From an archaeon (lineage in GTDB: Archaea > B1Sed10-29 > WALL01): a stretch of DNA of 64,000 nucleotides. How positions within the stretch are numbered: the first letter of the stretch is position 1; each line of letters opens with the position of its first letter. The stretch lies in assembly GCA_042584585.1 (NCBI GenBank), contig JBHOSQ010000002.1, forward strand, positions 1 to 64,000, read 5' to 3'. The position numbers and the translations under genes were made by a program. The notes below the pieces were generated by a model that was not told where the DNA came from, made no database searches, and was given only the letters and a program-made list of their open reading frames with translations. Positions 24,831 through 57,501 of this stretch are shown in pieces.

Positions 24831-24834
24831 GGTT

Positions 24835-25707: not shown

Positions 25708-25730
25708 TACCACGGTTATGAAAAAAGGGC

Positions 25731-27273: not shown

Positions 27274-27861
27274 ATGATGAAAGGTGTAAGCCCCGCTGTA
27301 TCGTACGTTTTGCTTCTGGCCGTAGTAGTTGTGATGTCCGTGGCCGCTTATTTGTGGGGCACTTACGAGATACAGCGCCTCGAAGACCTGCCCGTGGCGC
27401 ACAACATCGAGTCACAAATGATTTCTGTCGACCAACTGGTCCAGGCGGTGAGCCACGGCGACACCAACTTCACGACAACGATGAATTTGTACTACAGGAA
27501 GGGCGTGATACAAGTCGACGAAAGCGATGGCTGGATTAAGTACACCGCGCAATTGAACGCTGACGTCTACGAGCGGCTGGAGGAGACCGCGAACTCCACA
27601 TGCAACTCCACAACCATCGTCATCCAGGACGACGCGACCGGAATAAAGATGTCACGGATGCCGTACACGAACGTGTTCCGCGGCAGCACGGGCGGCGACG
27701 AAGCGCAGGTAATCGAAATAGTTGCGTGCTACGACGACATTCAAATAGAGGAAAGCACGGTGTGCAAGGGGCGGAGCGGCCCGCGCGCGCAGCTCACCGC
27801 AAAAAAAACCGGGTACAACGCGACGTCAAGCAAGCCCATTGTTGAGGTGAGGGTCTGCTGA
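27274..27861 (+). CDS. Archaeal type IV pilin (class III signal peptide)
   Basis: MMKG/VSPAVSYVLLLAVVVVMS N-terminus. Confidence 0.85.
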   Translation: MMKGVSPAVSYVLLLAVVVVMSVAAYLWGTYEIQRLEDLPVAHNIESQMISVDQLVQAVSHGDTNFTTTMNLYYRKGVIQVDESDGWIKYTAQLNADVYERLEETANSTCNSTTIVIQDDATGIKMSRMPYTNVFRGSTGGDEAQVIEIVACYDDIQIEESTVCKGRSGPRAQLTAKKTGYNATSSKPIVEVRVC

Positions 27862-28307
27862 AAGGCCAGTTCAGCGTCTCGTTCGTCGCGCGCATCGCGC
27901 TTGGCCTGCTGATGGTCGTGGCGATTGCGTACGCCACGCTCGCGCTCGAAGACTCGATAAAGCGGGAGTCACAAAAGCAGACGCTCGTGAACGTCGGGGA
28001 ATACGTCGGGCGCAACGTGGTCACGATCATGCAGTACCTCGACCCCGGCCAGTCCGGAAACCAAACATTCCGAATCCCACTCTCAAAAGACTACTACGCG
28101 GGCCAATACACGGTAAAGCTGGAGGACATTGACGACGTGGTGTACATAACAGTAACGTCGCTCAAGTGGTCGGACATGTCCGCGAGGCAGCCCCTGTACC
28201 TGAACGCCAGCAAGGTCGACATCAACACGGCCCCCGCCTTCCCGCCCGCGGTGTGCGCAACAGCAAGCCGCAACACAACACATTACCAATTGTCATTGAA
28301 CTGCTGA
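27858..28307 (+). CDS. Pilin-like protein, probable CTG start
   Basis: In-frame KGQ/FSVSFVARIALGLLMV lies upstream of ATG 27912; in-frame stop at 27843; GAGGTGA SD 7 nt before CTG 27858, which overlaps the previous TGA. Confidence 0.7.
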   Translation: MKGQFSVSFVARIALGLLMVVAIAYATLALEDSIKRESQKQTLVNVGEYVGRNVVTIMQYLDPGQSGNQTFRIPLSKDYYAGQYTVKLEDIDDVVYITVTSLKWSDMSARQPLYLNASKVDINTAPAFPPAVCATASRNTTHYQLSLNC

Positions 28308-28317
28308 GGTTGAAAAA

Positions 28318-30282
28318 ATGCCCCTGTCCAAAAAGCTCCTCGAAAGGACCGCGAACAAAATCCGCAAGAAGCGGGCTGAAGACGAGCCCGAGGAAAAAGA
28401 GGAAGAGCTCACGCTCCCCGAAATCAGGGACATTGGGGACGACCTTCAGGTGGCGGACATGGGCGAAACGCTCGGCAGGATGAAGACCGAAGAAACCGCA
28501 GACGACCAGGAAGAGCAAGTCGAAGAGCTAAAGAAAATCAAGGAAGAGTTCGAGACCGGGCAGAAGGCCGAGGACACGGAGGGAGAAAACATTCCGCACG
28601 CGGTCGACTTTTCCGCCATCCGCGCAGGCAAAAAAGTCCAGCCAACCGAAGTCAAGATTTCTGTTCAGGACTACGCCAAGATGAAGCAAAAAATCGAGAG
28701 CATCGAAAAAGAAAGCAAGATGAAGAACATCCCGCTCAAGGCACACAAAATCCCGACGCAGTACCTCAAAAAAATGGGGGTGGCGTGGAAGCCCCCGGAA
28801 TTCACCGAAGTAAACCAAATCTATTCGCTCGTCAAGCCGTTCGCGTTCGCCAACCTGTTCTGGGACAAGAACGAGAGCAGGCTTTCGTACTACATACTCG
28901 AGCCGCACCTCACCAAAGAGCAGCAGCGCACCCTCCAAATGATAAAAGAGATTGTCGTGGACCTGCTCGACGTCAACCTCTTCGAAATAAAGAGCACGAC
29001 CTCTGTCAGGGACATACTCAAGGAAAAGGTCGACAAGGTAATCCGCGACTACGGAATGGCCGTCACCGAGCACGAGTACCAAAAAATCCTGTACTACATG
29101 TACCGCGACTTCCTGGGGTTGGGAATAATTGAGGGGCTCATGCACGACCCCAACATTGAGGACATCTCGTGCGACGGCGTCAAGATACCTCTGTACATTT
29201 ACCACCGCAAGTACGCAAGCATCCCCAGCAACCTCATGTTCCACAACGAAGAAACGCTGAACAAGTTCATCATCCGCATGGCACAGCGCTGCGGCAAGCA
29301 CATCTCGGTCGCAGAGCCGCTCCTGGACGGTGCGCTGCCCGACGGAAGCCGCCTTCAGGCCACTTTCTCGTCACACAAAGACATTGCTATGCAGGGCTCG
29401 ACATTCACAATCCGGAAGTTCACCAAGGACCCGCTGACGATTACGGACCTGCTGAACTTCGGGACGCTCCCCGAAATGATTGGGGCGTACCTATGGGTCG
29501 CGATGGAATACAGGAAGTCAATACTGTACGCCGGCGGGACCGCGACCGGCAAGACGTCTTTCCTGAACGCCATGAGCATGTTCCTCCCGGCCGAAATGAA
29601 GATTATCTCGATAGAGGACACGCCCGAAGTAAGGCTGCCGCACGAGCACTGGCTGCAAAAAGTCGTGCGCACGGGGTTCGGCCGCGCGGACTTAACTGGC
29701 CGCAAGTCCGGCGAGATAAGCATGTACGACCTGCTTCGTGCCGCGCTTCGTGAGAGGCCCGACGAAATTATTGTGGGAGAAGTTCGTGGCAAGGAAGCGT
29801 ACGTACTGTTCCAAGGTATGGCGACGGGACACGCAGGCATGGCGACAATCCACGGCGACTCCGTAGACGCGGTGATGCACCGTCTTCAGACGCCACCGAT
29901 TAACCTATCGGCCGGGCTTCTGCAGCACTTGAACATCATCATCATCCTGACGAAGGCGCGCATCAAGGGAATCGAGGTCCGCCGCATCAAGGAAGTCGTC
30001 GAAGTCCTGGGGCTGACAAAGGAACAGGAGCCAATCATCAACACACTGTTCAGGTGGAACCCCGCGACCGACACGTTCGAGTTCTCGAGCGACAAGAGCT
30101 ATGTGTTCCAGCGCATCATCGAGGACAAGGGAATCGAAGAAAAAGACATTTGGGAAGAAGTCCAGCGCCGCCGCCAAATCCTGAAGTGGATGAAAGAAAA
30201 CAACATCAGGTACTACATTGACGTCGGCAAAATCATCCAAAAATATTATTCCGCCCCGGAAGAGGTGCTCAAGAACATATGA
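28318..30282 (+). CDS. Type II/IV secretion (pilus assembly) ATPase, ArlI/TadA-like, with acidic N-terminal extension
   Basis: DPNIEDISCDG, TIRKF, Walker A GGTATGKTS, IEDTPE, RPDEIIVGEVRG, TGHAGMATIH. Confidence 0.93.
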   Translation: MPLSKKLLERTANKIRKKRAEDEPEEKEEELTLPEIRDIGDDLQVADMGETLGRMKTEETADDQEEQVEELKKIKEEFETGQKAEDTEGENIPHAVDFSAIRAGKKVQPTEVKISVQDYAKMKQKIESIEKESKMKNIPLKAHKIPTQYLKKMGVAWKPPEFTEVNQIYSLVKPFAFANLFWDKNESRLSYYILEPHLTKEQQRTLQMIKEIVVDLLDVNLFEIKSTTSVRDILKEKVDKVIRDYGMAVTEHEYQKILYYMYRDFLGLGIIEGLMHDPNIEDISCDGVKIPLYIYHRKYASIPSNLMFHNEETLNKFIIRMAQRCGKHISVAEPLLDGALPDGSRLQATFSSHKDIAMQGSTFTIRKFTKDPLTITDLLNFGTLPEMIGAYLWVAMEYRKSILYAGGTATGKTSFLNAMSMFLPAEMKIISIEDTPEVRLPHEHWLQKVVRTGFGRADLTGRKSGEISMYDLLRAALRERPDEIIVGEVRGKEAYVLFQGMATGHAGMATIHGDSVDAVMHRLQTPPINLSAGLLQHLNIIIILTKARIKGIEVRRIKEVVEVLGLTKEQEPIINTLFRWNPATDTFEFSSDKSYVFQRIIEDKGIEEKDIWEEVQRRRQILKWMKENNIRYYIDVGKIIQKYYSAPEEVLKNI

Positions 30283-31160
30283 TAGCAACGAAAAAGTACT
30301 CGCTCCTCGCGTACTCGCTGCTCAAGGGCCAGGTCAGGTACCTGCTGCCGTACTTCGAAAGCCTTAAGGTCACCATTCAAAAGGCAGACCTAGGGGTCGC
30401 GCTCGACGAATACATCGCGTCGTACATCCTGTCCAACCTCATCGCGCTGCCCGCGGCATTCGTGATTATCTGGGTGTGGATTGCCACGTTCCTCAATGGG
30501 GGAATACTCGAAATACTCATATCGGAGCTCGTCGGGCTCTCGCTTGTGTCCGGCATGGTCGTCCTGATTTACATGATTTACCCACAGTACCGCGTCAACA
30601 CACTCAAGAACGCACTCGACAAGCACGTCGCATTCGCCGCCACACACATGGCCACGATTGCTGGAACCGGCGTGCCGCCCCACGTGATATTCCAAATGAT
30701 GGGGCAGTTCGACGACTACGGAGAAATCGCGAAAGAATGCAGGAGCATCTCGCAAAACATCGTGGTGTTCGGGTACGACACACTGTCCGCAATCTCGGAC
30801 GTCGCGCAGCGCACACCGTCACACAAGTTCAAAGACCTGCTGTGGTCGATTGTCGCGACCATCCGCACGGGCGGGGACCTGCGCCAAATGCTTGTCTCCA
30901 AGTCAAAAGCACTCATGGAAGAGCAAAGGCGGATTGAAGGCAAATACATCGAGACCCTATCCATGTTCGCCGAAATCTACTCCACGGTCTTCGTCGCAGG
31001 AATAGTCATGGTGTTCGTGCTGCTGTCAATCATGGGAATACTCGGCGGGCTGCCCGTCCCAGTAAAGCTCGTGCTCCAACTGACCACCTACCTCGGGCTG
31101 CCGCTAGCCGCAATCGGGTTTATCGTACTAATCGAAACCAGCAAACCATCAGGAATATGA
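30279..31160 (+). CDS. Type II secretion F-domain platform protein (ArlJ/TadC-like)
   Basis: TM helices, YGEIAKE, RTPSHKFKDLL, RTGGDL; follows ATPase. Confidence 0.88.
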   Translation: MIATKKYSLLAYSLLKGQVRYLLPYFESLKVTIQKADLGVALDEYIASYILSNLIALPAAFVIIWVWIATFLNGGILEILISELVGLSLVSGMVVLIYMIYPQYRVNTLKNALDKHVAFAATHMATIAGTGVPPHVIFQMMGQFDDYGEIAKECRSISQNIVVFGYDTLSAISDVAQRTPSHKFKDLLWSIVATIRTGGDLRQMLVSKSKALMEEQRRIEGKYIETLSMFAEIYSTVFVAGIVMVFVLLSIMGILGGLPVPVKLVLQLTTYLGLPLAAIGFIVLIETSKPSGI

Positions 31161-31164
31161 TTCA

Positions 31165-32376
31165 ATGGCAAGAGAAGTGAACAGGGCAATCACCGAAGTC
31201 CGCGACCAATTGAGGAAAATCAAAAAGCGCTGGAAAGTGCTTTGGTTACTCTCCCTAATCGCATTCGCCATGGTACTCTTCAGCCTAATCTTCCAGCCCG
31301 AAAACTTCAACCTATGGACCCTCGGCGGATTCTTCATCATGAGCGTTCCGTTCTCGTTCTACATCTACGTCGAGCACAGCCGCCTCGCCAGCATAGAGGA
31401 GCACTTCCCCGACTTCCTTAGGGACATCGCCGAATTCAAGCGAAGCGGCGTCACACTCGCAAAAGCAATACAGAACGCGTCATCCAACGACTACGGCAAC
31501 CTCTCCCCCGAAGTCAAAAAAATTGCGCTGGAACTGTCGTGGGGAGTAAGCTTCGAAGAAGCCATGCAGCTCCTGCTGGGCCGCGTGGAAAGCCCCATGA
31601 TAGACCGCGCCATCTCAATCATCACCGCCGCGCAATCGGCAGGCGGCGAAGTAACCACCATCCTCGAAACCGTTTCCGCGGACCTAAGAAAGCTCAAAGA
31701 GCTCGAGGCCGAAAGAAAATCCAAACTGTCAGTCTACACCATGACAATCTACGCGATTTACCTGCTGCTGCTGTTCATCATTATTGTCTTGACAGAGTCA
31801 TTGGTCCCCGCAATCCCCAAAATGCAGGCAGCCGGCGAATTCCTCGGAGGCTCGGTCGGGTCAATCTCGGAATTCGAGTTCAGGGAACTCTTGTTCCAGG
31901 TCACCGTGCTCGAGGCACTGTTCGCGGGCCTGATTTCGGGACAAATGGGCGAAGGCAAAGTCACGGCCGGCATCAAGCACTCAATCATCCTCGTGATAAT
32001 CACGCTCCTGGCGTTCCAGCTCGTGCCCCCCGCGACCATCGCGGAAAAAATCGGGGAAACCATCCTCGACATCCCACCCGCCTCAGGCGTTACCACGCGG
32101 TCCATTGAAGGCGTCGGAGAGCTCACGGAAAGCTTTGACTCAAACGACGTGGCGACCGAAGTAAAAGCGCTCGCCAAAGAACGCAACCGAAACCAATACA
32201 AAGCATTTAGCGGCAGCCAAATCGAATTTATATCATTCGGCTGCACGCCATGCACCAGCGGGGAACTCACAATCGAAAGCGGCGAAGTTACAGTCCTACA
32301 GCCAACCATGATACGATACAGCGTGAAGTACGCAGGCGACAGGTACCAGGTGGCATTCAGTGACGCAAACATCTAA
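31165..32376 (+). CDS. Type II secretion F-domain platform protein with C-terminal soluble extension
   Basis: IEEHFPDFLRDIAE, DYGNLSPEV, LSWGVSFEEA, GLISGQMGEG-GIKH; extra ~115 aa after last TM. Confidence 0.88.
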   Translation: MAREVNRAITEVRDQLRKIKKRWKVLWLLSLIAFAMVLFSLIFQPENFNLWTLGGFFIMSVPFSFYIYVEHSRLASIEEHFPDFLRDIAEFKRSGVTLAKAIQNASSNDYGNLSPEVKKIALELSWGVSFEEAMQLLLGRVESPMIDRAISIITAAQSAGGEVTTILETVSADLRKLKELEAERKSKLSVYTMTIYAIYLLLLFIIIVLTESLVPAIPKMQAAGEFLGGSVGSISEFEFRELLFQVTVLEALFAGLISGQMGEGKVTAGIKHSIILVIITLLAFQLVPPATIAEKIGETILDIPPASGVTTRSIEGVGELTESFDSNDVATEVKALAKERNRNQYKAFSGSQIEFISFGCTPCTSGELTIESGEVTVLQPTMIRYSVKYAGDRYQVAFSDANI

Positions 32377-32839
32377 AGGGTCAATCGGAATAGAATTCGT
32401 CGTAGCCACCGCCCTCTTCCTGGTCGCGTTCTGGTTCATCTACTTCCAAAGCGCACTCATGCTCACGCCCCAAATGCAGAGGAGCGACGTCCGCGAAATC
32501 GCGGTAGAATTCTACTCCAGCACACTGATTGCCAGCCCCGGCGAGCCGGAAAACTGGGCCGCCAGCCCCACGCAACTAGGGTTCGCGGACATGGTGAGCG
32601 GCTCGTCAACCCCAGGAGTGCTTAACAAGACCAAGCTTGATTGGGCGGACGGCCAAGACTGCGATAGTTACAACACTACCATGGCCGGAATGGAATTCGC
32701 GTGGAAGGTCACCACGTCAGTGGCCACGTGGGAATGCAACACCGACATACCCAAAGTCGGAGTAATCAAGCGGCCGGTAATCGTGTACTGGAGCGGATGG
32801 GCTTACCGCGCCGGCACAATGGAGGTGTGGGCGGCATGA
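32360..32839 (+). CDS. Minor pilin-like protein
   Basis: SKG/SIGIEFVVATALFLV class III signal; GEPENW-LGF motif. Confidence 0.75.
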   Translation: MTQTSKGSIGIEFVVATALFLVAFWFIYFQSALMLTPQMQRSDVREIAVEFYSSTLIASPGEPENWAASPTQLGFADMVSGSSTPGVLNKTKLDWADGQDCDSYNTTMAGMEFAWKVTTSVATWECNTDIPKVGVIKRPVIVYWSGWAYRAGTMEVWAA

Positions 32840-33240
32840 AGAAAGGGTTCATGCGCATCCTCGAGGTCCTGATAGTGATAATGCTGCTGTTTACATTGAT
32901 GACAGCGGTGGTGAAGCAAAACCCCCCCACGTCAATGGCGACGAACCTTCGGGTGCTGCAAAGGCACGCGACAGACTCGTCCAACATGATGTGCAACTGC
33001 GACAGGGCAGTAGCGATTTTCATGAGCGCGGCGTCCATGAACTGGGTTACCAGCACAATGACCTACGCCCTTCCCGAAGACATTCAATATAGCTTAATAG
33101 TAGTAAATATAACCTCCGGCGATATAATTAAGTCGTCCGGCGGAAACCTGCCTGAGACGGGCGATATCGCGACGGCAAGCTGCTCAGTCACGCGCTGGGG
33201 CCTGCCGCCAAGACAAGTAGTGGTGAGAACATGGAGATAG
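32836..33240 (+). CDS. Minor pilin-like protein
   Basis: MKKG/FMRILEVLIVIMLLF; ATGA overlap; GGAGGTG SD. Confidence 0.75.
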   Translation: MKKGFMRILEVLIVIMLLFTLMTAVVKQNPPTSMATNLRVLQRHATDSSNMMCNCDRAVAIFMSAASMNWVTSTMTYALPEDIQYSLIVVNITSGDIIKSSGGNLPETGDIATASCSVTRWGLPPRQVVVRTWR

Positions 33241-34448
33241 GAACAAAAGGACAATTCTATATTTTGATTCTGGTGTTTATGATCTCGGTAGTCGTGGGGG
33301 TTGCTTACTTCACGACCGAGTCAAAACAACTGGAACAAGAAACGGACATCGAGCAGGAGCCAATGCTGCAGACGATTATGGACGGCTACGAGTCAGAGCT
33401 GAAGGCATCCATCGAAGGCGGGCTCTACAGCGGAAACCCCGCGTTCTACCAAGAGGTAGAGGCCAAGCTCACCACCCAAGCCGCCCAAAAAGGCTACGGG
33501 TTTACTTCTGACTGCACTCGGACCCCAATCAATAGCTACAGCGAGCAAATCGACTGTGACATCGAGCTCTCGGTGGGCGAGAACGTTTTGACGACGAGCT
33601 TTTCCCACACCTATGCCGTGGAATTCGGGATAGAGCTGTACGCGGACGAGGACTACACCCACAAAACCACTTACTACGCGCCCGGCGACACGATTTATTA
33701 CCGCGTGACGTCGCCCGCGCCCAGCGACACCAACGTGACCATCAACTACCCGGACGACCAGGAAAAAGAGAAGCAGGAAAAAAGCGGCACAGGCTTCGCG
33801 AACTTCGCTACGTTCGGAACCATTGACGTGGACGAGACCACGGGCGAGTGGGAAATATCGCTGGACAGCTCGGCCGACTCCATGAGCACAGCGTTTTACG
33901 TCCAGGAGTCCGTCGTCGACATCACCACGTACGACTCAAGCTGGATTCCCCAGGACACGTTCAACCGCGGCGAAGAAGTCAAGTACCGCATCGTCGTGTC
34001 GCCTTCCGCGAACGTTTACATGGACGTCACCGCCGGCGGGCAGGACAGGGACTACGACTGGTGGAGCGATGCCCCATCAACGCTGCACGAGTCCAGCTTT
34101 GTGGTGAGCTCGGTGGAGAGCTCGGGCACCGTTTTGACTTTGACGGCGATTGAGGACGGCTACTTCGGCGAGGCGTCGGTGAACATCACTGTTTTGTACG
34201 TGCCGTACGGCGCGTTCATTCCAGTGGACCTGGAGTACGAGCACGTTCCGTTTGACGCGTTCAAGACCTCGTGTGGGTACGAGGAGTGGTACGCCGGAAC
34301 CACGACTAACAACAGCGGCGTGCCGTTCGACTGCGTGCCGACGGGCGACGCGGTGGTGCGCGTTGCGAACGAAGTCGAAGTGATTAGTGTTCCACACGTT
34401 TACGCAGACAAACTCCATATTCTTAGCTCGAGGTGTGACGATTGCTGA
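33231..34448 (+). CDS. Large pilin-like protein with C-terminal Ig-like domains
   Basis: TKGQ/FYILILVFMISVVV; two related Ig-like segments (YAPGDTIYYRV, FNRGEEVKYRI). Confidence 0.75.
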   Translation: MEIGTKGQFYILILVFMISVVVGVAYFTTESKQLEQETDIEQEPMLQTIMDGYESELKASIEGGLYSGNPAFYQEVEAKLTTQAAQKGYGFTSDCTRTPINSYSEQIDCDIELSVGENVLTTSFSHTYAVEFGIELYADEDYTHKTTYYAPGDTIYYRVTSPAPSDTNVTINYPDDQEKEKQEKSGTGFANFATFGTIDVDETTGEWEISLDSSADSMSTAFYVQESVVDITTYDSSWIPQDTFNRGEEVKYRIVVSPSANVYMDVTAGGQDRDYDWWSDAPSTLHESSFVVSSVESSGTVLTLTAIEDGYFGEASVNITVLYVPYGAFIPVDLEYEHVPFDAFKTSCGYEEWYAGTTTNNSGVPFDCVPTGDAVVRVANEVEVISVPHVYADKLHILSSRCDDC

Positions 34449-34825
34449 AAGTAATTAGTGTATTGTTATTGGCAGCCCTTTTGGTTGGCTGTACAAACAC
34501 GGAGGAAGCCCCGGAGCCGACGGCAACGCTGGAGCCATTCGTGTCCCCCACGCCAGGGACATCAACAGCCACGGCAACACCAACAGCCACACCCGAGCCA
34601 ACGCCAATTCCCATTCCAACTAAAACATTCACCACGCAGTACGAAGTCTGTGAAGACCTTACTGAAACATGGTACTGCCTCACCGACAACGGCCTTGTGA
34701 CGTGCACGCTCACGGGCATCAACGCGCCGAGCTACACGCCCAGCGAAATCACAGTTACGTGCTTCAACTTCGACTCACTCGAAGAAACAGAAGAATTCGT
34801 TATACGTGTAGGTGATTCCCAATGA
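34442..34825 (+). CDS. Lipoprotein with Pro/Thr stalk
   Basis: Lipobox LLVGC; PT-rich linker; 4-Cys C-terminal domain. Confidence 0.75.
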   Translation: MLKVISVLLLAALLVGCTNTEEAPEPTATLEPFVSPTPGTSTATATPTATPEPTPIPIPTKTFTTQYEVCEDLTETWYCLTDNGLVTCTLTGINAPSYTPSEITVTCFNFDSLEETEEFVIRVGDSQ

Positions 34826-44328: not shown

Positions 44329-44332
44329 TACA

Positions 44333-44893
44333 ATGGCTAAGAAGAAAAAGATCAAGGTCGACCCCAAAGTTTGGTGGGTGGTCGGAGGAATAATAGTGGT
44401 TGCAGTCATAGCAGCGGCATTCCTCATGGCCAGCGACCAGGGAATAATCAAGCCAATCACGATTCCGGGGCTGCCCGCGGGCCCGGAGCAGCCAATAAAG
44501 CTGTGCGACTACAACGGCGTCTGTGACGGCGTGGAGACGCGCGAGTCGTGCCCCGAGGACTGCATCGAGCCGCAAGCGCTTTCAGTGGAACGGGACGAAG
44601 AGTCCCCTGTGACTGACTCGACGCCAACAGTCGAGATACTCATGGAAAGCGGGACCGGCGTCGCGTCTTGTGGGACGGGCACAAACGACGCCACGCAGTG
44701 GGAATGCGTTGTGGAGGAGCCGGGCGCAATCAGCACAATGGTGCGGTGCACGCTACTGAATTATCATTTTGACGGCAAGTACATGCTTGCCTTGCGGTGC
44801 AAGGACAACAACGGCGCTGACTTGCCCATGCAGCTCATTGACGACACAACGGTTTGTGCGGACCCCGTAACCGGATGCGGGAGGTGGCTCTAA
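44333..44893 (+). CDS. Single-pass membrane protein with Cys-rich extracellular domain
   Basis: KKKK then TM helix; CDYNGVCDGVETRESCPEDC motif; between the two giant genes. Confidence 0.75.
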   Translation: MAKKKKIKVDPKVWWVVGGIIVVAVIAAAFLMASDQGIIKPITIPGLPAGPEQPIKLCDYNGVCDGVETRESCPEDCIEPQALSVERDEESPVTDSTPTVEILMESGTGVASCGTGTNDATQWECVVEEPGAISTMVRCTLLNYHFDGKYMLALRCKDNNGADLPMQLIDDTTVCADPVTGCGRWL

Positions 44894-50800: not shown

Positions 50801-53800
50801 TACAGTGTCAAGGTCCGGGACGACGCCGGCAACGAAGGCGCGGACTCCGCGGACACGTGTGCGTACACCGACGCGAGCGTGCCGACGATGGACTCCATCA
50901 CGGCAGAGGGCACGCCGCTTAACTCTGGAATCGGGCGAGTGGAAGTCAACTGGAGTGGCAACCCAGCCGGAACTGACTACGAAGTGCAGCGCGACAAGTT
51001 CTTGACGAGGTACAGCGGAACAAACACGGCTTATACTGACACTGGACTGGACAACACATGGTACTGCTACCGCGTGCGGGCCCAGCCGTCGGGAGGCTCG
51101 TGGAGCGGCTGGAGCAACGAATTGTGCACGGTTACTTTGGACAGGACTGGGCCGTCGCCGCCGAACTTGACTGCGACGCCGGACAACGTGAACAACCGCG
51201 TTGACTTGGACTGGACGTGGGCGAACGACGAAATCGCGCCGGACATTGACAGCGGAATGGTCGGGCACTGGAGGTTCGAGGAGGGCAGCGGCATAGCGAC
51301 ATATGACTCATCAGGAAGCAACATCGATGGGACTATAGTCGGCACCCCACAATGGGTTACAGGCCTAGCAGGCAACGCAGTCCAGCTGGACAACAGCTAC
51401 ATCAATCTCGGGGACGCTCCAACACTAGACATAGCTACTGAACTCACTTTATCCATGTGGGTGAAGCCAGATGCGTTTGTTGTGGACAAGTTCCTGTTCG
51501 GCGGCTCATGGAGTTACCACGGCTATTCCCTGCGCTTCGATGATGCCGATAACTCGCAGCTGGAATGGTATGTTGGTGACGGAAGCGCGTATCATTTCTT
51601 CACCTACCCCCACGGCATGGTAACAGGAAAGTGGTACAATATCGTATGCACTTATGACGGAACCGAAGGCAAGGTGTTCGTGAACGGGAACCTGATTGGC
51701 TCAAGAATCGAGCCGTTCATACCGGACGGCGCGTACATACAGGACCACGTGATTGGCACGGACGGAAGCAAGGCAAAACACTTCACTGGAACCATGGACG
51801 ACGTTCGCGTGTACAACCGCGCGCTCACCGACGAAGAGGTGAAGTGGCTGACTCTCGTCGGCCAATGGCACTTCGATGAAGGCACTGGCACGGACGCGTT
51901 CGACGCGACTGGGTTCGGAAACGACGGATCGTTTGTTGGTGACCCCGCGTGGACTGATGGCGTGCACAACACGGCGCTTGAGTTCGACGGAAGCAACTAC
52001 GTCAGCGCTGGAAGCAGCGAAGCCTTGAACCCGAGACAGCAGGGGTGGACCGCAGAAATGATGGTCAAGTCAACCCAGAAGAGCGGGGGCAACGGCGGCT
52101 ACATACGTGTCATGGGAAGGTACGAAGCAGGAGACTACTGGCTGCTCAGGACCCACACGAGCAGTGGTGACTACCCTGTGTTCCAGATAACTGATGGGAG
52201 TAACTCTGCCGGTGTCGCGGGCACTACAACCGTCACCGACGGCGTGTGGCACCACCTAGCGTTTGTGTATGACTACGACGACTCAAGGACATACATCTAC
52301 ATAGACGGAGTTGAAGACGCGGCCAACGATTGGACTGGAACCTCAATGGGGGACATCAACCCAAGCACTGCCCTCCAAATTGGTCAATCACAAGCAGCCA
52401 ATGAAGGATACAGCGGCAAAATCGACGAAGTCCGCGTGTGGAGAAGGGCATTGACCGCGGCAGAGATACAGGCACGGGCGAAGTACGGGCTGTATCGGGC
52501 TGCGGCGCTTGACGGGGCATACGAGCCAGTTGACGGGCTGTGGGATGACTTCGATGGCGCGGCTGTGGACACGGCTACGTGGACCGAACTAACTACCAAC
52601 GACGCATCCATAACAGTGTCCAACAGCGAAGTAACACTCGACGACAATACGGGGATAGCCCACCTAACCACACAAGAAAACTTTGGGGTGTATGGAACAC
52701 TTGAGTTCGACCTCAAGGCAAACACTCCCGAGCCGGGGTCCACTTGGTACAGAATAGCCAAAGTCCCAAACACGTTCTATGTCGACGCCGGCAACATTTT
52801 CTCTATATGGATGACCGGTGGAGTTCAGCTTGGCATAGTAAACGACTACGAATTCCATAACTGGAAGTTCACTTTGGACGGGACGCACATACGGGTTGTC
52901 TACGACGGCAACGTGATATACACGGCGGACCAGGCCAGCAGCCTGGGGACCATCCGCTTGGGCAACGACTTCAGTACCGAACACGGGAACATGGTGTTCA
53001 AAAACGTTAAGTTCACGCCGCTGATTAGCACGAACACATACCAAGACACTGGCGCGAGCGACACGGCAGGGCCGAACACTCCTGCAGCGCCGACTGTATT
53101 GCCCATCAACAGCACCGCAATGCAGGCCTCGTGGAGTGGAGTGGGAGACGTCGGCACCGGGTGGTGGCACTACGTCAAGGCGTTTGACTCGGAAGGCAAC
53201 GAAGACAATTATCACGACAGCAGCGAGCTCATTGGCTACTGGCCGTTCAGTGAAGGCAGCACGGGAAGCGCGGACGGAGTGACGACGTATGACTCCGTTG
53301 GCACCAACGAGGGCACGGTAAGCGGTGCGGCGTGGGCAACAGGCGCTTACGGCACAGCACTTGATTTCACTGGCGGAAACACAGACAAAGTAGCACTGGC
53401 CACTCCCCTCACCCAAACAGTGTGGAGCACGACCTTCTGGGCGCGGCAAGACGCCGGGGCAGACATCAAGGGAATGATAATGGGCGACACCAGCAACACA
53501 ATCAGCTTCATATGGTTCTGGGAAGGCAGCTACTTCAGGTTCAGGTCCAACAGTGGCACTCTCGACTGGCCAGAGCTGACCGACTTCACGACGATGGCCC
53601 ATTATGCACTCGTGAGCGACGGCGTTAGTGTAACGCTGTACAAGAACGGCGTGCAAGTCGGCAGCCCCCAGACGCCGGCATCAACAGAATTCACGGTAAA
53701 TGCGATTGGACAGGGGTACAACAACATTGACTATTCGTTTGACGGCGTGATTGACGAAGTGATGGTATACGACCGCGTGCTCACCGACGATGAAGTGGTA

Positions 53801-56800
53801 AGCAACTACAAGCGTGGCGCGGCCAAGTTCTCGACAGTTGTTACTGGCCTGCAGGACTATTACGTCAACGAGACCACTGGCAACGGCACCGGCGGGGCGG
53901 CGGCAGTGGCGGCGTACAACGACACCAGCCTGACGCCGAACGGATACGCGTGCTACGAAGTGCGGGCAAGGGACAACGCCAACAACTGGGGATTGTTCTC
54001 GAGCCCGACGTGCAACTACACGCTCGCGGTGACACCCGGGGCAAGCGTCACGTGCAGCCGAAACCCAGACCACTGCAACGTCACGATTTCACCGAACGGC
54101 AACGCGGCGGGCACAGAATACAACGTCAACAACACCCAGGGCGGAACCGACAGCGGGTGGATAACCGCGTCGTACTACGACGACACCAGCGTAAGCGGCC
54201 AACAAATGTGCTACAAGGTCAGGGCCCGCAACGCCAACGGAATCGAGACCAACGAGTCCACCGAAGTGTGCGACAACATGCCCAACACCGCGCCGACCAC
54301 GCCAGTGCTTGTGTCACCGACCAACGGCGCGATTGTCTCGACGCTGACGCCGACGCTTGATTGGCAGGACAGCAGTGACAACGAAAACGACAGCATTAAC
54401 TACGAAGTGTTGCTGTGGGGCGACACGCCACCAAGCTTCACGATAACCAACTTCAACAACGGCGCGAAGACCAACACCACGACCGACGCGGACAGGTACG
54501 GCCAGGGCAGTGGGCTGGAGCTGGACATGCCTTACGCGGCCAAGGACGCGAACCTCGTGTCGTACTGGAGGATGGAAGGCGACGCGGTGGACGAGGCCGG
54601 GCCAAACCACGGCACAATCACTGAAGCCACGCCAGACGCCGGAAAGTTCGGCAGTGGCCTGCACTTCGACGGGTCAAACGACAAGGTGACCATACAGAAT
54701 GACCCCTCGCTGAACCCGGCGCAGATAACAGTCGCGAGCTGGTTCAACCCGGACGTTGGAGGCATAGGAGAGCAAAAAACATTGCTGATGAAGGCCTTCA
54801 CGTCACACACCACGCCGCACTACCAGTACACGCTTACAATCATAGACAAGGTGGACTACGAAAAGAAGCTTGCGTTTTACGCGGCGGTTGGAGGGGTGCT
54901 TTACGACACGGGAGCGGGGTCACTCAACTACGACTACGGCGAATGGCACCTCGCAACCGGCACGTACGACGGCGGAACCATGCGCCTGTACCTGGATGAC
55001 CAAGAAGTGGCATTCAGCGATGCGCCCAGTGGACCACTGAACTCGTTCGACACAGAACTAGCGTTCGCAGACTACCCCAACCTCGGCGACACCTCGAGTT
55101 ACCAATACGGTGGGGTGCTTGACGAGATGAAGATTTACGACCGCCCGTTGACAGGGCCGGAAGTGACAGAGCTGTTCAACAACGGAAACCAGTACAAGGC
55201 ATACGGCTACTGGGAAAGCGAGACCATTGTCCCGCAGGGCGTGCCCAACAAGCTGAGCATAACCCACTCCGGGTTGAGCACGAGCTCTTACATAGACAAG
55301 GTCGAGTGGCTGGTAAGCGGGCAGGTCAAGGCAACGTACGGCACCGACGTGACAAGTGGGTCGCTCACAGAGATAACCACGCCGACAAGCGGGAGCTTCG
55401 ACGACGTAGACAGCGACTACAAGATACGGATTTACCTTGCCGGCGACGGGACCGCCACGCCAACGCTCACGCAGCTAACCGGCGAATACACCAGCCTGCA
55501 CAAGACCGGGCTGGGAAGCAGCCAATACATAATCCAGGCAAGTGAACAGTTGGTGGGCGGGAACTACAGCTGGAAAGTCAAGGCACACGACAGCTGGGCG
55601 TCGTCTGGCTGGAGCAGCACGTGGACGTTCCAGGTCCAGACCAACGACCCCGTGCTCAGCAGCGTGCAAGTCACGCCGGCGCACCCAACAGTAGTGGACG
55701 GCCTCGGGTGCTCGTGGGTGATTACAGACGTTGACTTCAACGACACTTTGACCGCGGACGTCACCTGGAAAAAGAACGGCGCGCCAATCGCCACGTGGGA
55801 CATCACGGGCATGGCCTGCCAGAACGGGCAGGTGTGCACCGCCACCAGCGCACCCACGTCCAGCGACATCGCGGCAGGCGAAGTGTGGACGTGTGTGGTG
55901 ACGGCAAAGGACGCGGCACAGCTCACAGACGAAAAGAACGACACGGCAACAATACTCAAGGCCCTTACGGTGTGGTACACGGACGGGACATACGACACGT
56001 TCGCGTACACCCCCGAGGCATGGGACGTGTTCAGCGCAAACATGGAGAGCACTTTCCAGGGCTCGTGCGGCGGGTTCGCGCCGAACTGGTGGAACACCAA
56101 CTGGCCGCTCAGGATACCCGTGGACGTCACAGAAAACACTGATGGCATGAGCCAATACCAAGTCAAGGTCGAGCTGGACGCTGGGTTCAACTACGGCGCC
56201 ACCGAGACAGGTGGGAGCGACATACGGTTCGCCGACGACGCCAAGGTGCCACTGCCGTACTGGATAGAGACGTGGAACCCGGGCGGGACGAGCGTGATTT
56301 GGGTCAAAGCCGACTTGGCTAGCGGGCCCAACCCATTGTGGATGTACTACGGCAACGCTGGAGAGCCGAGTGAGAGTGACGGGACCGCGGTGTTCATTTC
56401 GTTCGACGACGGCGAGGCCGGAAACTTGGTGCTCAACCCCGCGGGAGCGGGAAGCATCGAGCGCGTTGGCGGAAGGATCTACGGGGAATCAGTGGCGGCC
56501 GCGGACGGCTGGCTAATCGGGACAATCCTGTCCGGCGAGCCGTTCATCGCCAAGGCGAAGCTTGAGAGCGGCGCGACTGGCAACGGCGGCATCGAGGCAC
56601 TGGCCTTAAGCAACTGGGCGGCAGTGCCTGTTCCGATGATTAACACTGCGTTCAACCCCAACGCACGGTTCGGCATCAAGCGCTACCTGGACGACCACAC
56701 CTTGTACGTGCACTACATGGACAACGCGGGCAGCGGGTGGTACTACGACGCGGTGAACAACGTGTGGGCCGACAGCCCGACTAACTGGAAGGTTGCTGGG

Positions 56801-57199
56801 CCGGGCGAGTACACGCTGATGGTCTGGGACGACGGAATCAACTACAACGCGGACATTATCGAGGAAGGCGCCGGAAGCGTGTTCACTGTCCCGCCGTCGA
56901 TACCGAAGTCACAGGTCAAGGACTTCCAGGACGGGATTGCCATCGTGGCGGGCGAGCCGTACACCAGCCACTATTACGGCCAGCAGTACGTCGACGACTG
57001 GAGGATTCGGAAGCACGTGGACACAGACCCGAGCGTTGTCCCGGGCGGCGAAGAAAGCGGCGGAAGTGGCCCGGGGCCGGGCAGCAAGTACGTGTTCTAC
57101 TCGATGAAGGACATTGACGAGACCAAGATAGTCGACGAGGTTTGGTTCGCGACAAAGGACAAGTGGCAGGTCAACGCCATAACGGTCGAGAGGGCATGA
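44894..57199 (+). CDS. Giant secreted adhesin B (4101 aa): FN3/Ig-like, 7 LamG, C-terminal DUF2341-like domain
   Basis: Signal peptide; seven (L/M)(V/I)(G/S)xWx(F/L/M)...(I/L/M)D(D/E) LamG units; WWNTNWPLRIPV...SDIRF...LPYWIETW...IWVK...WMYYGN DUF2341 pattern; no C-terminal TM. Confidence 0.88.
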   Translation: MKYAALFALLLMVSTAFGLLIVDWSPPDGTITLYDTWNQDVSYGRGCNSPICDNYPPGVDGQVTVNFTNVTDAYEGQAVAVAGLENCWITDCELLDKTGCPACPYVSCEAYSPDNAFFNYGDPVDGSSVDWTTIEGTGDQYDTHLAHELWTEGPGTDWSPSWPTLLPQPNEGVRTIKAICADKAGNIAIQMQDDIYGDFVDPYATISYSGGYQSSTSISITQTASDQGRSPPPDPITHDTQRDRAVMADGVLGAWEGWSTIDTSGTNFNWDGPDCYGVKLRYRSHDVADRYSDWEDPSITVYIDTNTPGAVGSLTSTSHPLGTTAYANQTATFTWSDPQPCSGTQYYATAVTQSSSHSWTGTEPTSAGTSNVTTGLAEGTWYFHIRSRNNAGTWGTADSFMINVDLGAPTPNPATVASVVVDSDTQVTVTATTATDAFAPIYYRANETTGNSGGTNFTWQTGTSFVDGGLAISTQYCYIVQYKDKWDNEGAWTTTPVCDYSNAAVPGAPTVTLLPESSPLNSGLTMANIVIDENGNPATVLYNIKDVATGLHVQADGTLGASAAWMSYVNWGGSSGIDVTLEDDFVYSFAVKANGGGGDFSAYGPAITVTALDRTGPSPVDLTATADIANNRVNLTWPWASDEIAPDIDSGLVGHWELEDNTLDSSGNGHDGTNPLGISWVDGIQGQAGHFVNGRTATDITTNYLPLTVSFWVKEDANTWESSAAIGKRDGSSGWMFYRNPTWGDGNLGLLTYYVNTDPITTSYINYVYGLNDGNWHHIAFTIENGVTTTYKDGVLNERYVMPNFDYWLNNSQGISLGSEKAGSASWNFDGYLDDMRVYDRLLTEDEIKALTLVGQWHFDEGTGTDAFDASGFGNDGTITGATWADGVHGSALDFDGAGDYIDAGTGNGFKMEDGAFTFEAMVKSDGGIEASPVIMQRMYNGDCGGSSNSDAMRLGTTHTAGSGNPEYPLFWVRDKNGNSATATSTVDINDGKWHHVAGVRTSSTIYIYVDGVETGTASASSIGEICPTNPFVIGRHSSSAQRFNGKIDEARVWRRALTASELQSRAWYMPFRSAMLEANYDAIKGAADDFSDGDYTSNPVWTPGIGGSTWGVENGQVFTQSTTASESSLTLTENIAAGEPFVMTVDKVTDWAETGIHGGGHYIRQYTAGNYQVSGVTIPHAYAQHWRLEFDGTTYRFYLNDELIREWAGSSNGIFDLYDDRNAASGKVYYDNVKVYSLQGNSYEDTDASDTEAPDTPGAPTLTAYSTSILGVAWTGVSDTGNDWFHFVKAFDTTGNEDNYHPSNGLVSYWPLGDGSTGSADGAVTLNRESTDHGTVYGATWVDGEYGSALDFDGADDYVTIANTHAFANDDFSYTLWFKADTPQDNWQGIMLQNNYHTGAPNTFFVAAIRGTNDPPNQDKVQVYDRYNGINVADYSDGLYTDGEWHHLAVTYDRDGMRRFYIDGAFQKETDISPHIAIAFQTAPLQLGRDLTGAQGGTTGGVYAYDGSLDEILMYSRVLTPEEVAGIYHRGLIQQSTVTTGINDYYVNGTSLDQWYTTSPQNATSLGTNTRHCYNITARDNALNVGNVGGTQCNYTLAVKPSILAGSMVCDGNTSSGYKCDVPFSMGDNPLYTEYYITATSTDGGTGFTDSGWITVRETYVDTGLDPHKTYCYKINARNGDGTLTGQYTQVCKTVANNVPTLGSATGNTDPIKGTAQQTLTIGGVDDLDQELLYIHCCTDEANTCTPTNINDVCSSNDAHPYSSLSCSYATGGVTTRTEYVRCVTNDTHDVSTPVTSDSYLVDSVAPTTTDNHSAGSCNAVDQVVSLSAGDDVGGVGVDSTLYCVDTANTCNPVTSYSAPVTVTCSAGTACTKYLRYNSSDVVDNQETVNSAAVQIDKSNPDDGVIANIVSLGTDSLRVTATAGTDDGCGNSSLQYYFTCQSGACNDGTWQSGLVYDDSGLSPATEYCYSVKVRDDAGNEGADSADTCAYTDASVPTMDSITAEGTPLNSGIGRVEVNWSGNPAGTDYEVQRDKFLTRYSGTNTAYTDTGLDNTWYCYRVRAQPSGGSWSGWSNELCTVTLDRTGPSPPNLTATPDNVNNRVDLDWTWANDEIAPDIDSGMVGHWRFEEGSGIATYDSSGSNIDGTIVGTPQWVTGLAGNAVQLDNSYINLGDAPTLDIATELTLSMWVKPDAFVVDKFLFGGSWSYHGYSLRFDDADNSQLEWYVGDGSAYHFFTYPHGMVTGKWYNIVCTYDGTEGKVFVNGNLIGSRIEPFIPDGAYIQDHVIGTDGSKAKHFTGTMDDVRVYNRALTDEEVKWLTLVGQWHFDEGTGTDAFDATGFGNDGSFVGDPAWTDGVHNTALEFDGSNYVSAGSSEALNPRQQGWTAEMMVKSTQKSGGNGGYIRVMGRYEAGDYWLLRTHTSSGDYPVFQITDGSNSAGVAGTTTVTDGVWHHLAFVYDYDDSRTYIYIDGVEDAANDWTGTSMGDINPSTALQIGQSQAANEGYSGKIDEVRVWRRALTAAEIQARAKYGLYRAAALDGAYEPVDGLWDDFDGAAVDTATWTELTTNDASITVSNSEVTLDDNTGIAHLTTQENFGVYGTLEFDLKANTPEPGSTWYRIAKVPNTFYVDAGNIFSIWMTGGVQLGIVNDYEFHNWKFTLDGTHIRVVYDGNVIYTADQASSLGTIRLGNDFSTEHGNMVFKNVKFTPLISTNTYQDTGASDTAGPNTPAAPTVLPINSTAMQASWSGVGDVGTGWWHYVKAFDSEGNEDNYHDSSELIGYWPFSEGSTGSADGVTTYDSVGTNEGTVSGAAWATGAYGTALDFTGGNTDKVALATPLTQTVWSTTFWARQDAGADIKGMIMGDTSNTISFIWFWEGSYFRFRSNSGTLDWPELTDFTTMAHYALVSDGVSVTLYKNGVQVGSPQTPASTEFTVNAIGQGYNNIDYSFDGVIDEVMVYDRVLTDDEVVSNYKRGAAKFSTVVTGLQDYYVNETTGNGTGGAAAVAAYNDTSLTPNGYACYEVRARDNANNWGLFSSPTCNYTLAVTPGASVTCSRNPDHCNVTISPNGNAAGTEYNVNNTQGGTDSGWITASYYDDTSVSGQQMCYKVRARNANGIETNESTEVCDNMPNTAPTTPVLVSPTNGAIVSTLTPTLDWQDSSDNENDSINYEVLLWGDTPPSFTITNFNNGAKTNTTTDADRYGQGSGLELDMPYAAKDANLVSYWRMEGDAVDEAGPNHGTITEATPDAGKFGSGLHFDGSNDKVTIQNDPSLNPAQITVASWFNPDVGGIGEQKTLLMKAFTSHTTPHYQYTLTIIDKVDYEKKLAFYAAVGGVLYDTGAGSLNYDYGEWHLATGTYDGGTMRLYLDDQEVAFSDAPSGPLNSFDTELAFADYPNLGDTSSYQYGGVLDEMKIYDRPLTGPEVTELFNNGNQYKAYGYWESETIVPQGVPNKLSITHSGLSTSSYIDKVEWLVSGQVKATYGTDVTSGSLTEITTPTSGSFDDVDSDYKIRIYLAGDGTATPTLTQLTGEYTSLHKTGLGSSQYIIQASEQLVGGNYSWKVKAHDSWASSGWSSTWTFQVQTNDPVLSSVQVTPAHPTVVDGLGCSWVITDVDFNDTLTADVTWKKNGAPIATWDITGMACQNGQVCTATSAPTSSDIAAGEVWTCVVTAKDAAQLTDEKNDTATILKALTVWYTDGTYDTFAYTPEAWDVFSANMESTFQGSCGGFAPNWWNTNWPLRIPVDVTENTDGMSQYQVKVELDAGFNYGATETGGSDIRFADDAKVPLPYWIETWNPGGTSVIWVKADLASGPNPLWMYYGNAGEPSESDGTAVFISFDDGEAGNLVLNPAGAGSIERVGGRIYGESVAAADGWLIGTILSGEPFIAKAKLESGATGNGGIEALALSNWAAVPVPMINTAFNPNARFGIKRYLDDHTLYVHYMDNAGSGWYYDAVNNVWADSPTNWKVAGPGEYTLMVWDDGINYNADIIEEGAGSVFTVPPSIPKSQVKDFQDGIAIVAGEPYTSHYYGQQYVDDWRIRKHVDTDPSVVPGGEESGGSGPGPGSKYVFYSMKDIDETKIVDEVWFATKDKWQVNAITVERA
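47462..51924 (+). repeat. 59-nt near-identical direct repeat (47462-47520 and 51866-51924)
   Basis: TGGCACTTCGATGAAGGCACTGGCACGGACGCGTTCGACGCGA(G/C)TGGGTTCGGAAACGA; 58/59 identical. Confidence 0.9.
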
Positions 57200-57501
57200 A
57201 AGTCGAGTGGGCGACCACGCCGTGGCAGAAGTTCCTGGGGCTCATGTTCCGGAAAGAAGTAAAGAAGCCACTAGTGCTTGTGCTGGGAAAAGAGTCACGA
57301 ATGGGCGCGAGCATCCACATGATGTTCATGCGGTTCCCGATTGACGCCGTTTTTCTTGACACGGAAAGGAAGGTGGTTGACACAGCCACCCTGCGGCCGT
57401 GGGCGCTTAACTACACCCCCAAGAAGCCCGCGAAGTACGTGGTCGAGATGAAGGCCGGGACTGCAAACCACAAGTTGGGAGCCACGGTGAAACTGGAGTA
57501 A
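57196..57501 (+). CDS. DUF192 family protein
   Basis: ATTPWQKFLGLMFR, IHMMFMRFPIDAVFLD, AKYVVEMKAG; ATGA overlap with adhesin B stop. Confidence 0.88.
   Translation: MKVEWATTPWQKFLGLMFRKEVKKPLVLVLGKESRMGASIHMMFMRFPIDAVFLDTERKVVDTATLRPWALNYTPKKPAKYVVEMKAGTANHKLGATVKLE

Follow-up and report, generated by a model that had tools for sequence, protein, structure and literature searches.

How are two very large exported proteins held at the surface of an archaeal cell when neither carries a membrane anchor of its own? This question is raised by a stretch of 64,000 nucleotides (nt), here called the window (positions 1 to 64,000 of contig JBHOSQ010000002.1, assembly GCA_042584585.1), in which the region from 27274 to 57501 combines pilus-type genes with the genes of two giant adhesin-like proteins, giant 1 (3168 amino acids, aa) and giant 2 (4101 aa). 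The genome comprises ~1.02 Mb on 32 contigs, and its closest named relatives, metagenome-assembled genomes (MAGs) of 'Candidatus Iainarchaeum', identify the organism as a DPANN archaeon. The reading developed below is that of an adhesin in a conserved position of the operon (the slot), giant 2, which would dock in a PilY1-like manner through a conserved C-terminal domain (CTD) and would be extended by a strand-linked tip giant, giant 1; for this chain as a whole we see slightly less than even chances.

The initial annotation had described both giants as proteins with Sec-like signals and without transmembrane (TM) segment, lipobox or PGF/PEF-type anchor, and these observations held up. A Kyte-Doolittle scan (19-residue mean) located the sole hydrophobic segment of each giant at the N-terminus, with the highest mean beyond residue 40 reaching 1.0 in giant 1 and 1.14 in giant 2, and motif checks revealed no PGF/PEF motif, lipobox or C-terminal hydrophobic segment in either protein. 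The label 'anchorless', however, is accurate for the membrane anchor only, as giant 2 ends in the conserved CTD and giant 1 in a conserved, truncated terminal domain, so that attachment modules are present. A genome search for an archaeosortase returned only a sub-threshold exosortase-like match (22.8 versus 25.7 bits; C2:76645-76992, within a 192-aa frame, 12.6 kb beyond the window), this family being a poor probe, as a control search missed Haloferax.

The region holds 13 open reading frames, all on the + strand, which overlap or lie no more than 10 nt apart, and every one of them was recovered where the initial annotation had placed it: five pilin-like genes (pil1 to pil5), an assembly ATPase (ATPase 1), two platform half-proteins (1a and 1b), a small lipoprotein, giant 1, a small TM protein (smallTM), giant 2 and a DUF192 protein. 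ATPase 1 has best matches of 47-79% identity across the class, and the two platform genes match T2SSF with E values of 8e-15 and 2e-18. The five pilin-like N-termini, consisting of a short basic stretch, KG and then ~20 hydrophobic residues, have the look of archaeal class III signal peptides. These N-termini are in keeping with the pilin-like designation; the Pfam search of the five proteins gave only matches below the cut-off (DUF7287, 17.5 versus 27 bits; DUF7285; DUF7289). Two A24 prepilin peptidases (PF01478) score above the cut-off and are located outside the locus, on contigs C5 and C3. As defined in the accessible part of a survey of archaeal type IV filament (T4F) loci, 'system 1', represented by the Epd pilus of Methanococcus maripaludis and known from methanogens and DPANN, consists of an ATPase, two separate platform genes and pilins with class III signals (PMC13705601). 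Because the locus unites an ATPase, two platform genes and putative class-III-type pilins in agreement with this definition, we regard it as practically certain that it is an archaeal type IV filament operon of the system 1 (Epd/Tad-like) design.

The analysis of the locus covered 18 of the 31 class genomes (G000 denotes the genome studied here, the other G numbers its relatives). A conserved gene order recurs from family to class level and reads pil1, pil2, ATPase 1, platform 1a and 1b, pil3, pil4, (pil5), the slot, DUF192, an Fe-S ATPase 2, platform 2a and 2b, and a 245-aa gene. At least 12 relatives keep the second ATPase/platform set in synteny with the first, and it is possible that two motors serve one filament machine. 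The initial annotation, which had let the operon end at 57501, was right in counting DUF192 as the 13th gene, but this is not the end of the conserved unit, as synteny carries on to 60784. Between the pilin genes and DUF192/ATPase 2, nine of the 18 loci encode on one contig a Sec-signal protein of at least 770 aa, which measures 770-1556 aa in G004, G007, G008, G009, G011, G019 and G020 and is represented by giants in G000 and G002. Across contig breaks, G001, G003 and G006 are consistent with such a slot protein; the contig of G018 ends inside a gene of this kind, and G005 is rearranged. Homologues of the giants occupy the same place in G002 and G003, and 10 of the 18 genomes have DUF192 next after the slot. 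In loci of other DPANN and of Bathyarchaeia, the large protein that follows the platform genes is in many cases pilin-like itself (class-III-type N-terminus, 946-1337 aa).

The slot proteins differ in their payloads, in which Pfam recognized LamG in G004, FG-GAP in G008 and nothing in G009 and G011, and have in common a C-terminal domain of ~90 aa, the CTD. A profile of this domain detected it in 10 of the 31 class genomes, corresponding to 10 of the 13 within the order and none of the 18 outside, with one gene per genome. Each of the ten CTD genes immediately precedes DUF192 or ATPase 2, and seven lie on one contig between pil5 and the DUF192/second-ATPase set; this position, together with the gene order kept in related MAGs, supports a conserved linkage of large secreted proteins to the pilus operon. 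A search of 5.8 billion proteins yielded only 6 clear relatives of the CTD. An insertion of ~334 aa, which bears DUF2341, interrupts the domain in G000 and G002. An AlphaFold2 model of the CTD (11 sequences, pLDDT 75.5) shows five strands and leaves its most conserved part, the terminal 'QITAIT.EK' motif, unpaired. Laminin_G_3 matches extend over seven stretches of giant 2 (E 1.9e-149) and three of giant 1 (E 1.8e-44), and further lectin-type and FN3-type matches plus DUF2341 were found by Pfam. As slot proteins with differing payloads end in the same CTD and one gene per genome occupies the slot, we concluded from these sequence comparisons that giant 2 is the ancestral slot protein, enlarged approximately five-fold through the addition of LamG and FN3-like modules.

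Giant 1, by contrast, occurs in three of the 31 class genomes and is, judged by this distribution of homologues, a lineage-specific add-on. The initial annotation had treated the giants as equivalent units, each held by its own partner; this picture had to be given up, as giant 2 is the enlarged slot protein and giant 1 the add-on matching its first strand. The N-terminal N1 module of giant 1 reaches a BNR_2 score of 30.0 bits, just below the cut-off of 31.4, and has no sequence match in the PDB. Its opposite end was analyzed with a profile of the FN3-like repeat (95 positions, built from 232 copies; the searched set held a few duplicate proteins). While 594 of the 697 domain hits extend to position 90 or beyond, the terminal domain of all five C1 proteins stops at positions 78-80, at most two residues from the protein end, and thus lacks the last strand (consensus 'SFTVDTTAP'). 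A sequence resembling this strand stands at the start of mature giant 2, in its N2 module. In all seven mature N2 starts, the first nine residues after the predicted cleavage site score 6.2-15.6 bits on positions 81-89, each within the top 0.15% of a null of 37,339 9-mers from the long frames of this genome (99.9th percentile 7.1 bits), although the seven scores are not independent, as the N2 proteins are mutually related. At an overall identity of ~40%, V4, D5 and P9 of the N2 heads are among only 12 invariant columns. Tails ending in WA(E/Q)E(E/I) precede VDW heads in both adjacent pairs, and a TSTT tail precedes a VDF head in the single pair of this type, which in this tiny sample hints at cognate pairing of tail and head types.

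Complex prediction of giant 1 residues 2950-3168 with giant 2 residues 19-310, from alignments of 5 and 7 rows, gave an ipSAE of 0.60 (runs 0.60, 0.62 and 0.55) against 0.01 for the best of three controls, with at least 98% of contacts in common between runs and a partner pLDDT of at least 74; the verdict of the method was 'weak support', a mark for which the calibration counted 116 passes among 157 solved complexes and 2 among 215 mismatched pairs. The truncated last domain of giant 1 matches the first strand of mature giant 2, so that giant 2 is a likelier attachment point for giant 1 than the pilus or the membrane. Overall, we consider it somewhat more probable than not that the two giants are joined head to tail by a donor strand.

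The order of modules follows one grammar, which in the genome studied here reads N1..C1, smallTM, N2..CTD. The slot of G002 comprises the lipoprotein, N1..C1 (3596 aa), smallTM, a protein of N2 and C1 only (527 aa), another smallTM and N2..CTD (1094 aa). A search of 1.84 billion representative proteins retrieved P0006 (546 aa, N2-C1), P0019 (1570 aa, N2-like..C1), the fragment P0086 and P0017 (2399 aa, N2..CTD), in which the CTD is uninterrupted. The metagenome proteins P0006, P0017 and P0019 obey the same grammar and are probably neighbours (the longest contig of each measures 31,248 bases); a metagenome contig scan for the genomic context of P0006 returned only a 1.1-kb fragment.

The statement that each giant is directly preceded by a small membrane-anchored protein was found to be correct, with the lipoprotein standing before giant 1 and smallTM before giant 2. 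The lipoprotein family is directly upstream of all three N1-bearing genes in the class (G000, G002 and G003), and since a TM helix replaces the lipobox in G003, membrane tethering is kept while the anchor type has changed. SmallTM is directly upstream of the three N2-bearing genes with available context and occurs in 2 of the 31 class genomes (G000 and G002). Neither protein showed a Pfam match to PapD-like or DUF916-type chaperones. Relatives of smallTM were absent from the metagenome contig scan, the genome holds no paralogue, and the protein atlas gave no usable hit; the Atlas model (pLDDT 0.49) had no usable match. The small partners may act as a tether, a holdase or a strand-donating chaperone.

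Several observations weigh against a docked chain of giants. The giants and their partners are confined to 3 of the 31 class genomes, and slot proteins outside two genera have no small partner. Four of the 18 loci (G010, G013, G015 and G021) have an empty slot although their pilus genes seem intact, which means that the filament can do without the slot protein. Foldseek retrieved no PDB structure for the CTD model at E 0.001 or better. For the joint itself, both mismatches but only 18 of the 157 solved complexes passed the calibration mark at an ipSAE of at most 0.60, and by the method's own statement a 'weak support' pass is, without a good prior, more often wrong than right. The score came without contact positions, so that strand insertion itself was not seen; a pass for two halves of a split domain may, moreover, reflect likeness to solved folds, and a Cys-rich stretch of ~36 residues, inserted in the final FN3-like domain of C1, could close off the open edge in cis. 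As for the helpers, smallTM has no Pfam family and the lipoprotein only a DUF3558 match of 17.5 bits (cut-off 34.1). The idea that the two form one family was rejected (BLASTP E 0.37, hhalign probability 2%), and that of smallTM as the carrier of a placeholder strand imitating the missing one found no support, its best 9-mers scoring 5.9-8.3 bits against 9.2 (95th percentile of the null maximum) at no conserved site. Finally, G010, with a shortened pil5 and no slot gene, had been considered as evidence of coupling between pil5 and the CTD and was dropped, because a single contiguous deletion accounts for both losses.

Assembled into a mechanism, these parts suggest the following. The last structural position of the filament operon would be a slot for a Sec-exported surface protein free of a membrane anchor, made up of a variable binding payload and the CTD. 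Giant 1 would be the later addition, a distal adhesin with a BNR-propeller-like start and an FN3-like end devoid of its last strand, and donor-strand complementation would link the giants head to tail, giving a lectin-rich fibre of ~7,200 residues. At its base, the CTD of giant 2 would attach the fibre to the filament machine, with the large minor pilin pil5 as the most likely docking site. The lipoprotein and smallTM would serve as membrane-held helpers, each specific to the N-terminal module of the giant encoded directly downstream of it, either as holdases or chaperones or as tethers during export. The model of pil5 (7 sequences, pLDDT 67.7) combines a pilin-like head with a long helix at the N-terminus and with two sandwiches that Foldseek likens to macroglobulin domains, and residues 325-405 of pil5 contain invariant residues in the alignment and alone fold without confidence. 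Since pil5 and the CTD both have highly conserved C-terminal segments that do not fold confidently alone, pil5 is the obvious candidate dock. Docking on the pilus, which we infer only, is possible without being something we would bet on.

In bacterial type IVa pili, PilY1/PilC combines a Sec signal, an N-terminus unlike that of pilins, a gene position after the minor pilins, a conserved C-terminus and a variable N-terminal payload, and it sits on the minor pilins. The initial annotation had called the giants PilY1-analogous, and the layout agrees in all of these features (Sec signal, no pilin N-terminus, gene after minor-pilin-like genes, conserved C-terminus, variable payload). The domain itself does not, as the C-terminal beta-propeller of PilY1/Neisseria_PilC is absent from the Pfam matches of both giants and of four slot proteins of relatives, and the CTD, according to its model, would differ from PilY1 as a small five-strand domain without structural match. 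By analogy of layout, display of the giants at the pilus tip is plausible. Taken one step further, the system could be a hybrid organelle, a type IV filament that carries, via the CTD on a large minor pilin, a donor-strand-linked chain of giant adhesins. The two unrelated small membrane proteins would then represent a new kind of membrane-anchored assembly chaperone, and the chain would be extensible by 'head plus tail only' linkers, as in G002 and P0006. This full version we consider clearly unlikely.

The alternative that survives best dispenses with the pilus. The giants would form a self-contained donor-strand fibre comparable to Elr/WxL or Pam pili, with giant 1 as the tip and giant 2 as the base; the small membrane proteins would keep it at the membrane, or the cell envelope would retain it via the CTD, and the pilus genes would be mere co-transcribed neighbours. 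The accessible parts of the respective reports describe the Elr/WxL pilus of Enterococcus faecalis and the Pam pili of the Candidate Phyla Radiation (CPR) as donor-strand, chaperone-guided assemblies without an usher, in which the tip has a C-terminal Ig-like domain without last strand and no donor strand, middle subunits have both, the base is donor only and the chaperones are membrane-anchored (10.64898/2026.10.17.759780; PMC13278184). Such tip/middle/base systems need no type IV machine, and the likeness of layout extends to a strand-less tip end, a donor strand starting the next subunit, a donor-only base and adjoining genes for small membrane-anchored helpers, the number of small membrane proteins equalling that of the junctions (one in G000, two in G002). 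However, the CTD gene is older than the giants and occupies the pilus slot in 10 of 10 genomes, mostly without a partner gene or strand-less domain; moreover, smallTM and the lipoprotein have no PapD, DUF916 or WxL match, and giant 2 has neither a TM nor a sortase-type anchor. As far as these reports go, the present system also differs in its FN3-like acceptor in place of a WxL or Pam domain, neither of which was among the Pfam matches, in its two or three giant subunits instead of a polymer of small pilins, in helpers without PapD/DUF916 likeness by sequence, in a base formed by the CTD and not by a TM or LPXTG anchor, and in being embedded in an archaeal type IV filament operon. We regard a fibre off the pilus as unlikely.

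Weaker still is the explanation that there is no functional joint. A longer ancestral gene would have been split by insertion of smallTM and acquisition of a new signal peptide, leaving the truncated domain and the strand as relics, and the giants would act separately as Sec-secreted lectin-like surface or matrix proteins. The break exactly inside a tandem-domain array is what fission would leave, and the support from complex prediction is weak, but both supposed relics are kept in every copy (five of five tails, seven of seven heads) at an overall identity of ~40% and with the three invariant head positions named above. Proteins of 527 and 546 aa that consist of head and tail modules only are, in addition, hard to explain unless the modules are the function. 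A mere relic is quite improbable. A type II secretion (T2SS)-like export, in which a short pseudopilus would push Sec-exported, CTD-tagged proteins through the surface layer, the CTD serving as the tag that is recognized, and the giants would be released or loosely attached, would agree with the Sec signal, conserved C-terminal tag and variable payload of the slot proteins and, judged by bacterial T2SS, with two ATPase/platform sets in the supercluster as a dedicated exporter, but is very improbable given one substrate per genome where exporters usually serve several, an end-to-end joint that points to a retained fibre rather than a released product, and the fact that archaea are not known to have T2SS-like export.

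How, then, does the preferred reading of a CTD-docked slot adhesin extended by a tip giant relate to described archaeal systems? The T4F survey, in its accessible part, reports adhesin-like genes, including PilY-like arCOG03511, in archaeal T4F loci and rates an ordered T4F locus as rare in DPANN (PMC13705601). With system 1 as described there, the locus shares the ATPase, two platform genes and adhesin-like proteins, along with several putative class-III-type pilins; it differs in the signal peptidase outside the locus, the syntenic ferredoxin-fused second ATPase with two platform genes, the Sec-dependent slot protein with its order-specific CTD, and an order maintained across the class. For 'Ca. 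Mancarchaeum' Mia14, which has a small DPANN genome, concanavalin/LamG-rich secreted proteins beside type IV pili genes have been proposed to mediate host contact (2017, PMC5498576); a conserved C-terminal module, a split domain and partner genes such as found here are not described for Mia14 in the accessible part of that report. Sulfolobus threads, Pyrobaculum AbpA and cannulae are Sec-exported archaeal fibres held by strand complementation (PMC12518558), but, as presented in the accessible part of this source, such donor-strand filaments are homopolymers of small TasA-like subunits, whereas the present assembly would be heteromeric and giant, with an unrelated domain. A non-exhaustive keyword search found no literature on the CTD, on split-domain giants of Iainarchaeota or on DUF192 in pilus loci, and the supplements of PMC13705601 (S1 and S10 Figs; S4 and S5 Tables) may list the locus type.

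The features of the locus are compiled in the table. Calculated from the coordinates, pil1 and pil2 overlap, pil2 and ATPase 1 are separated by 10 nt, ATPase 1 and platform 1a overlap by 4 nt, and platform 1a and 1b are 4 nt apart; overlaps follow between platform 1b and pil3 (17 nt), pil3 and pil4 (4 nt), pil4 and pil5 (10 nt), pil5 and the lipoprotein (7 nt) and the lipoprotein and giant 1 (4 nt). Giant 1 and smallTM are 4 nt apart, smallTM and giant 2 adjoin without a gap (0 nt), and giant 2 overlaps DUF192 by 4 nt (ATGA).

Table. Features of the filament operon and its flanks, in window coordinates
Feature	Position	Strand	Remarks
TATA-box-like element (archaeal), TTTAAAAA	27229..27236	+	~30-40 nt upstream of pil1 start; sequence read directly, promoter role inferred
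pil1, pilin-like (MMKG|VSPAVSYVLLLAVVVV...)	27274..27861	+	no Pfam family; orthologues upstream of ATPase in relatives
pil2, pilin-like (LLKG|QFSVSF...)	27855..28307	+	CTG at the place of the relatives' ATG
Assembly ATPase 1	28318..30282	+	Pfam T2SSE (PF00437) E 6.3e-33; weak PilB3_C tail
Platform half-protein 1a	30279..31160	+	T2SSF (PF00482); 293 aa
Platform half-protein 1b	31165..32376	+	T2SSF (PF00482); 403 aa
pil3, pilin-like (SKG|SIGIEF...)	32360..32839	+	weak DUF7287 match
pil4, pilin-like (MKKG|FMRILEVLIV...)	32836..33240	+	pilin-like by its N-terminus
pil5, large minor-pilin-like	33231..34448	+	N-terminal helix, two macroglobulin-like Ig sandwiches, conserved C-terminal 80 aa
Small lipoprotein (lipobox LLVGC), N1 partner	34442..34825	+	G003 orthologue with TM helix instead of lipobox
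Giant 1 (3168 aa)	34822..44328	+	Sec-type signal residues 1-22, N1 module with BNR-like match, LamG and FN3-like arrays, C1 module
Giant 1, last FN3-like domain, cut before final strand	43990..44325	+	profile positions 5-78 of 95
smallTM, type II membrane protein	44333..44893	+	186 aa, 10 Cys; only beside N2-bearing genes
Giant 2 (4101 aa)	44894..57199	+	Sec-type signal residues 1-18, N2 module, 7 LamG stretches, split CTD
First 9 residues of mature giant 2 (LLIVDWSPP)	44948..44974	+	6.2 bits vs profile positions 81-89; top 0.15% of 37,339 null 9-mers
CTD, first half	55955..56074	+	profile positions 6-45, E 5.8e-8
Insertion inside CTD, ~334 aa	56075..57076	+	includes DUF2341; Pfam and CTD profile
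CTD, second half	57077..57196	+	conserved terminal strand-like motif; profile E 3.8e-4
DUF192 protein	57196..57501	+	Pfam E 2e-17; no signal peptide
Second set: ferredoxin-fused T2SSE ATPase and two T2SSF half-platform genes	57563..60784	+	61 nt past DUF192

A scan for bacterial promoters and terminators gave sites not above the shuffled control, this type of scan being unsuited to archaea. A look-up of sequencing runs for 43001-53000 of the window listed none, and likewise no holder of RNA data. In pil2, no ATG, GTG or TTG precedes the KGQF motif, and CTG 27855/27858 opens the frame at the place of an ATG (MLKGQ...) in five other genera; the stop of pil1 overlaps as CTGCTGA (27855-27861), and the same junction is found in the sister species G002 (locus L094). 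The conserved CTG suggests a non-canonical start or termination-reinitiation as read from these sequences. The ATPase 1 of five relatives (G002, G003, G006, G016 and G027) contains an insertion of ~440 aa after residue 503, which in G002 (L094:14644-17928, - strand) is an intein with a LAGLIDADG domain by Pfam, while the copy in the window is free of an intein. In G008, a gene for an RRXRR/HNH endonuclease lies between pil4 and pil5 (locus L098:7081-8511). The second-set ATPase carries an N-terminal 4Fe-4S ferredoxin module, and the second set has no pilin genes of its own. In G002 and G006, small genes with putatively PIN-like N-termini separate the CTD gene from ATPase 2.

Upstream of the operon, a family 2 glycosyltransferase (26478-27173) is encoded between an undecaprenyl-diphosphate-synthase-like gene and pil1; it has the same place in G002 and G004 and is not there in the other relatives. 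Giant 2 contains 32 N-glycosylation sequons and giant 1 seven. The window also holds genes of the lysine branch (19681-25713: diaminopimelate decarboxylase-like, DHDPS, and aspartate kinase with ACT domains), which exceeds the biosynthesis of many DPANN genomes. In the whole genome, ten frames, both giants included, are longer than 2000 aa (contigs C1, C2, C4, C11 and C17), and three proteins of 1214-1572 aa with pilin-type N-termini are encoded on C3, C7 and C9, so that surface giants take up a large share of this tiny genome.

Little is understood of the way in which DPANN archaea get to their hosts and stay attached, and earlier descriptions of large LamG proteins encoded next to pili genes came without a mechanism. 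The locus described here offers concrete parts, namely a docking-type CTD, a split FN3-like domain for chaining and lengthening giants, and module-specific membrane helpers. If the joint between the giants is true, donor-strand assembly, a recent finding in Gram-positive and CPR bacteria, would reach heteromeric giant adhesins in archaea and would be tied to a type IV filament machine.

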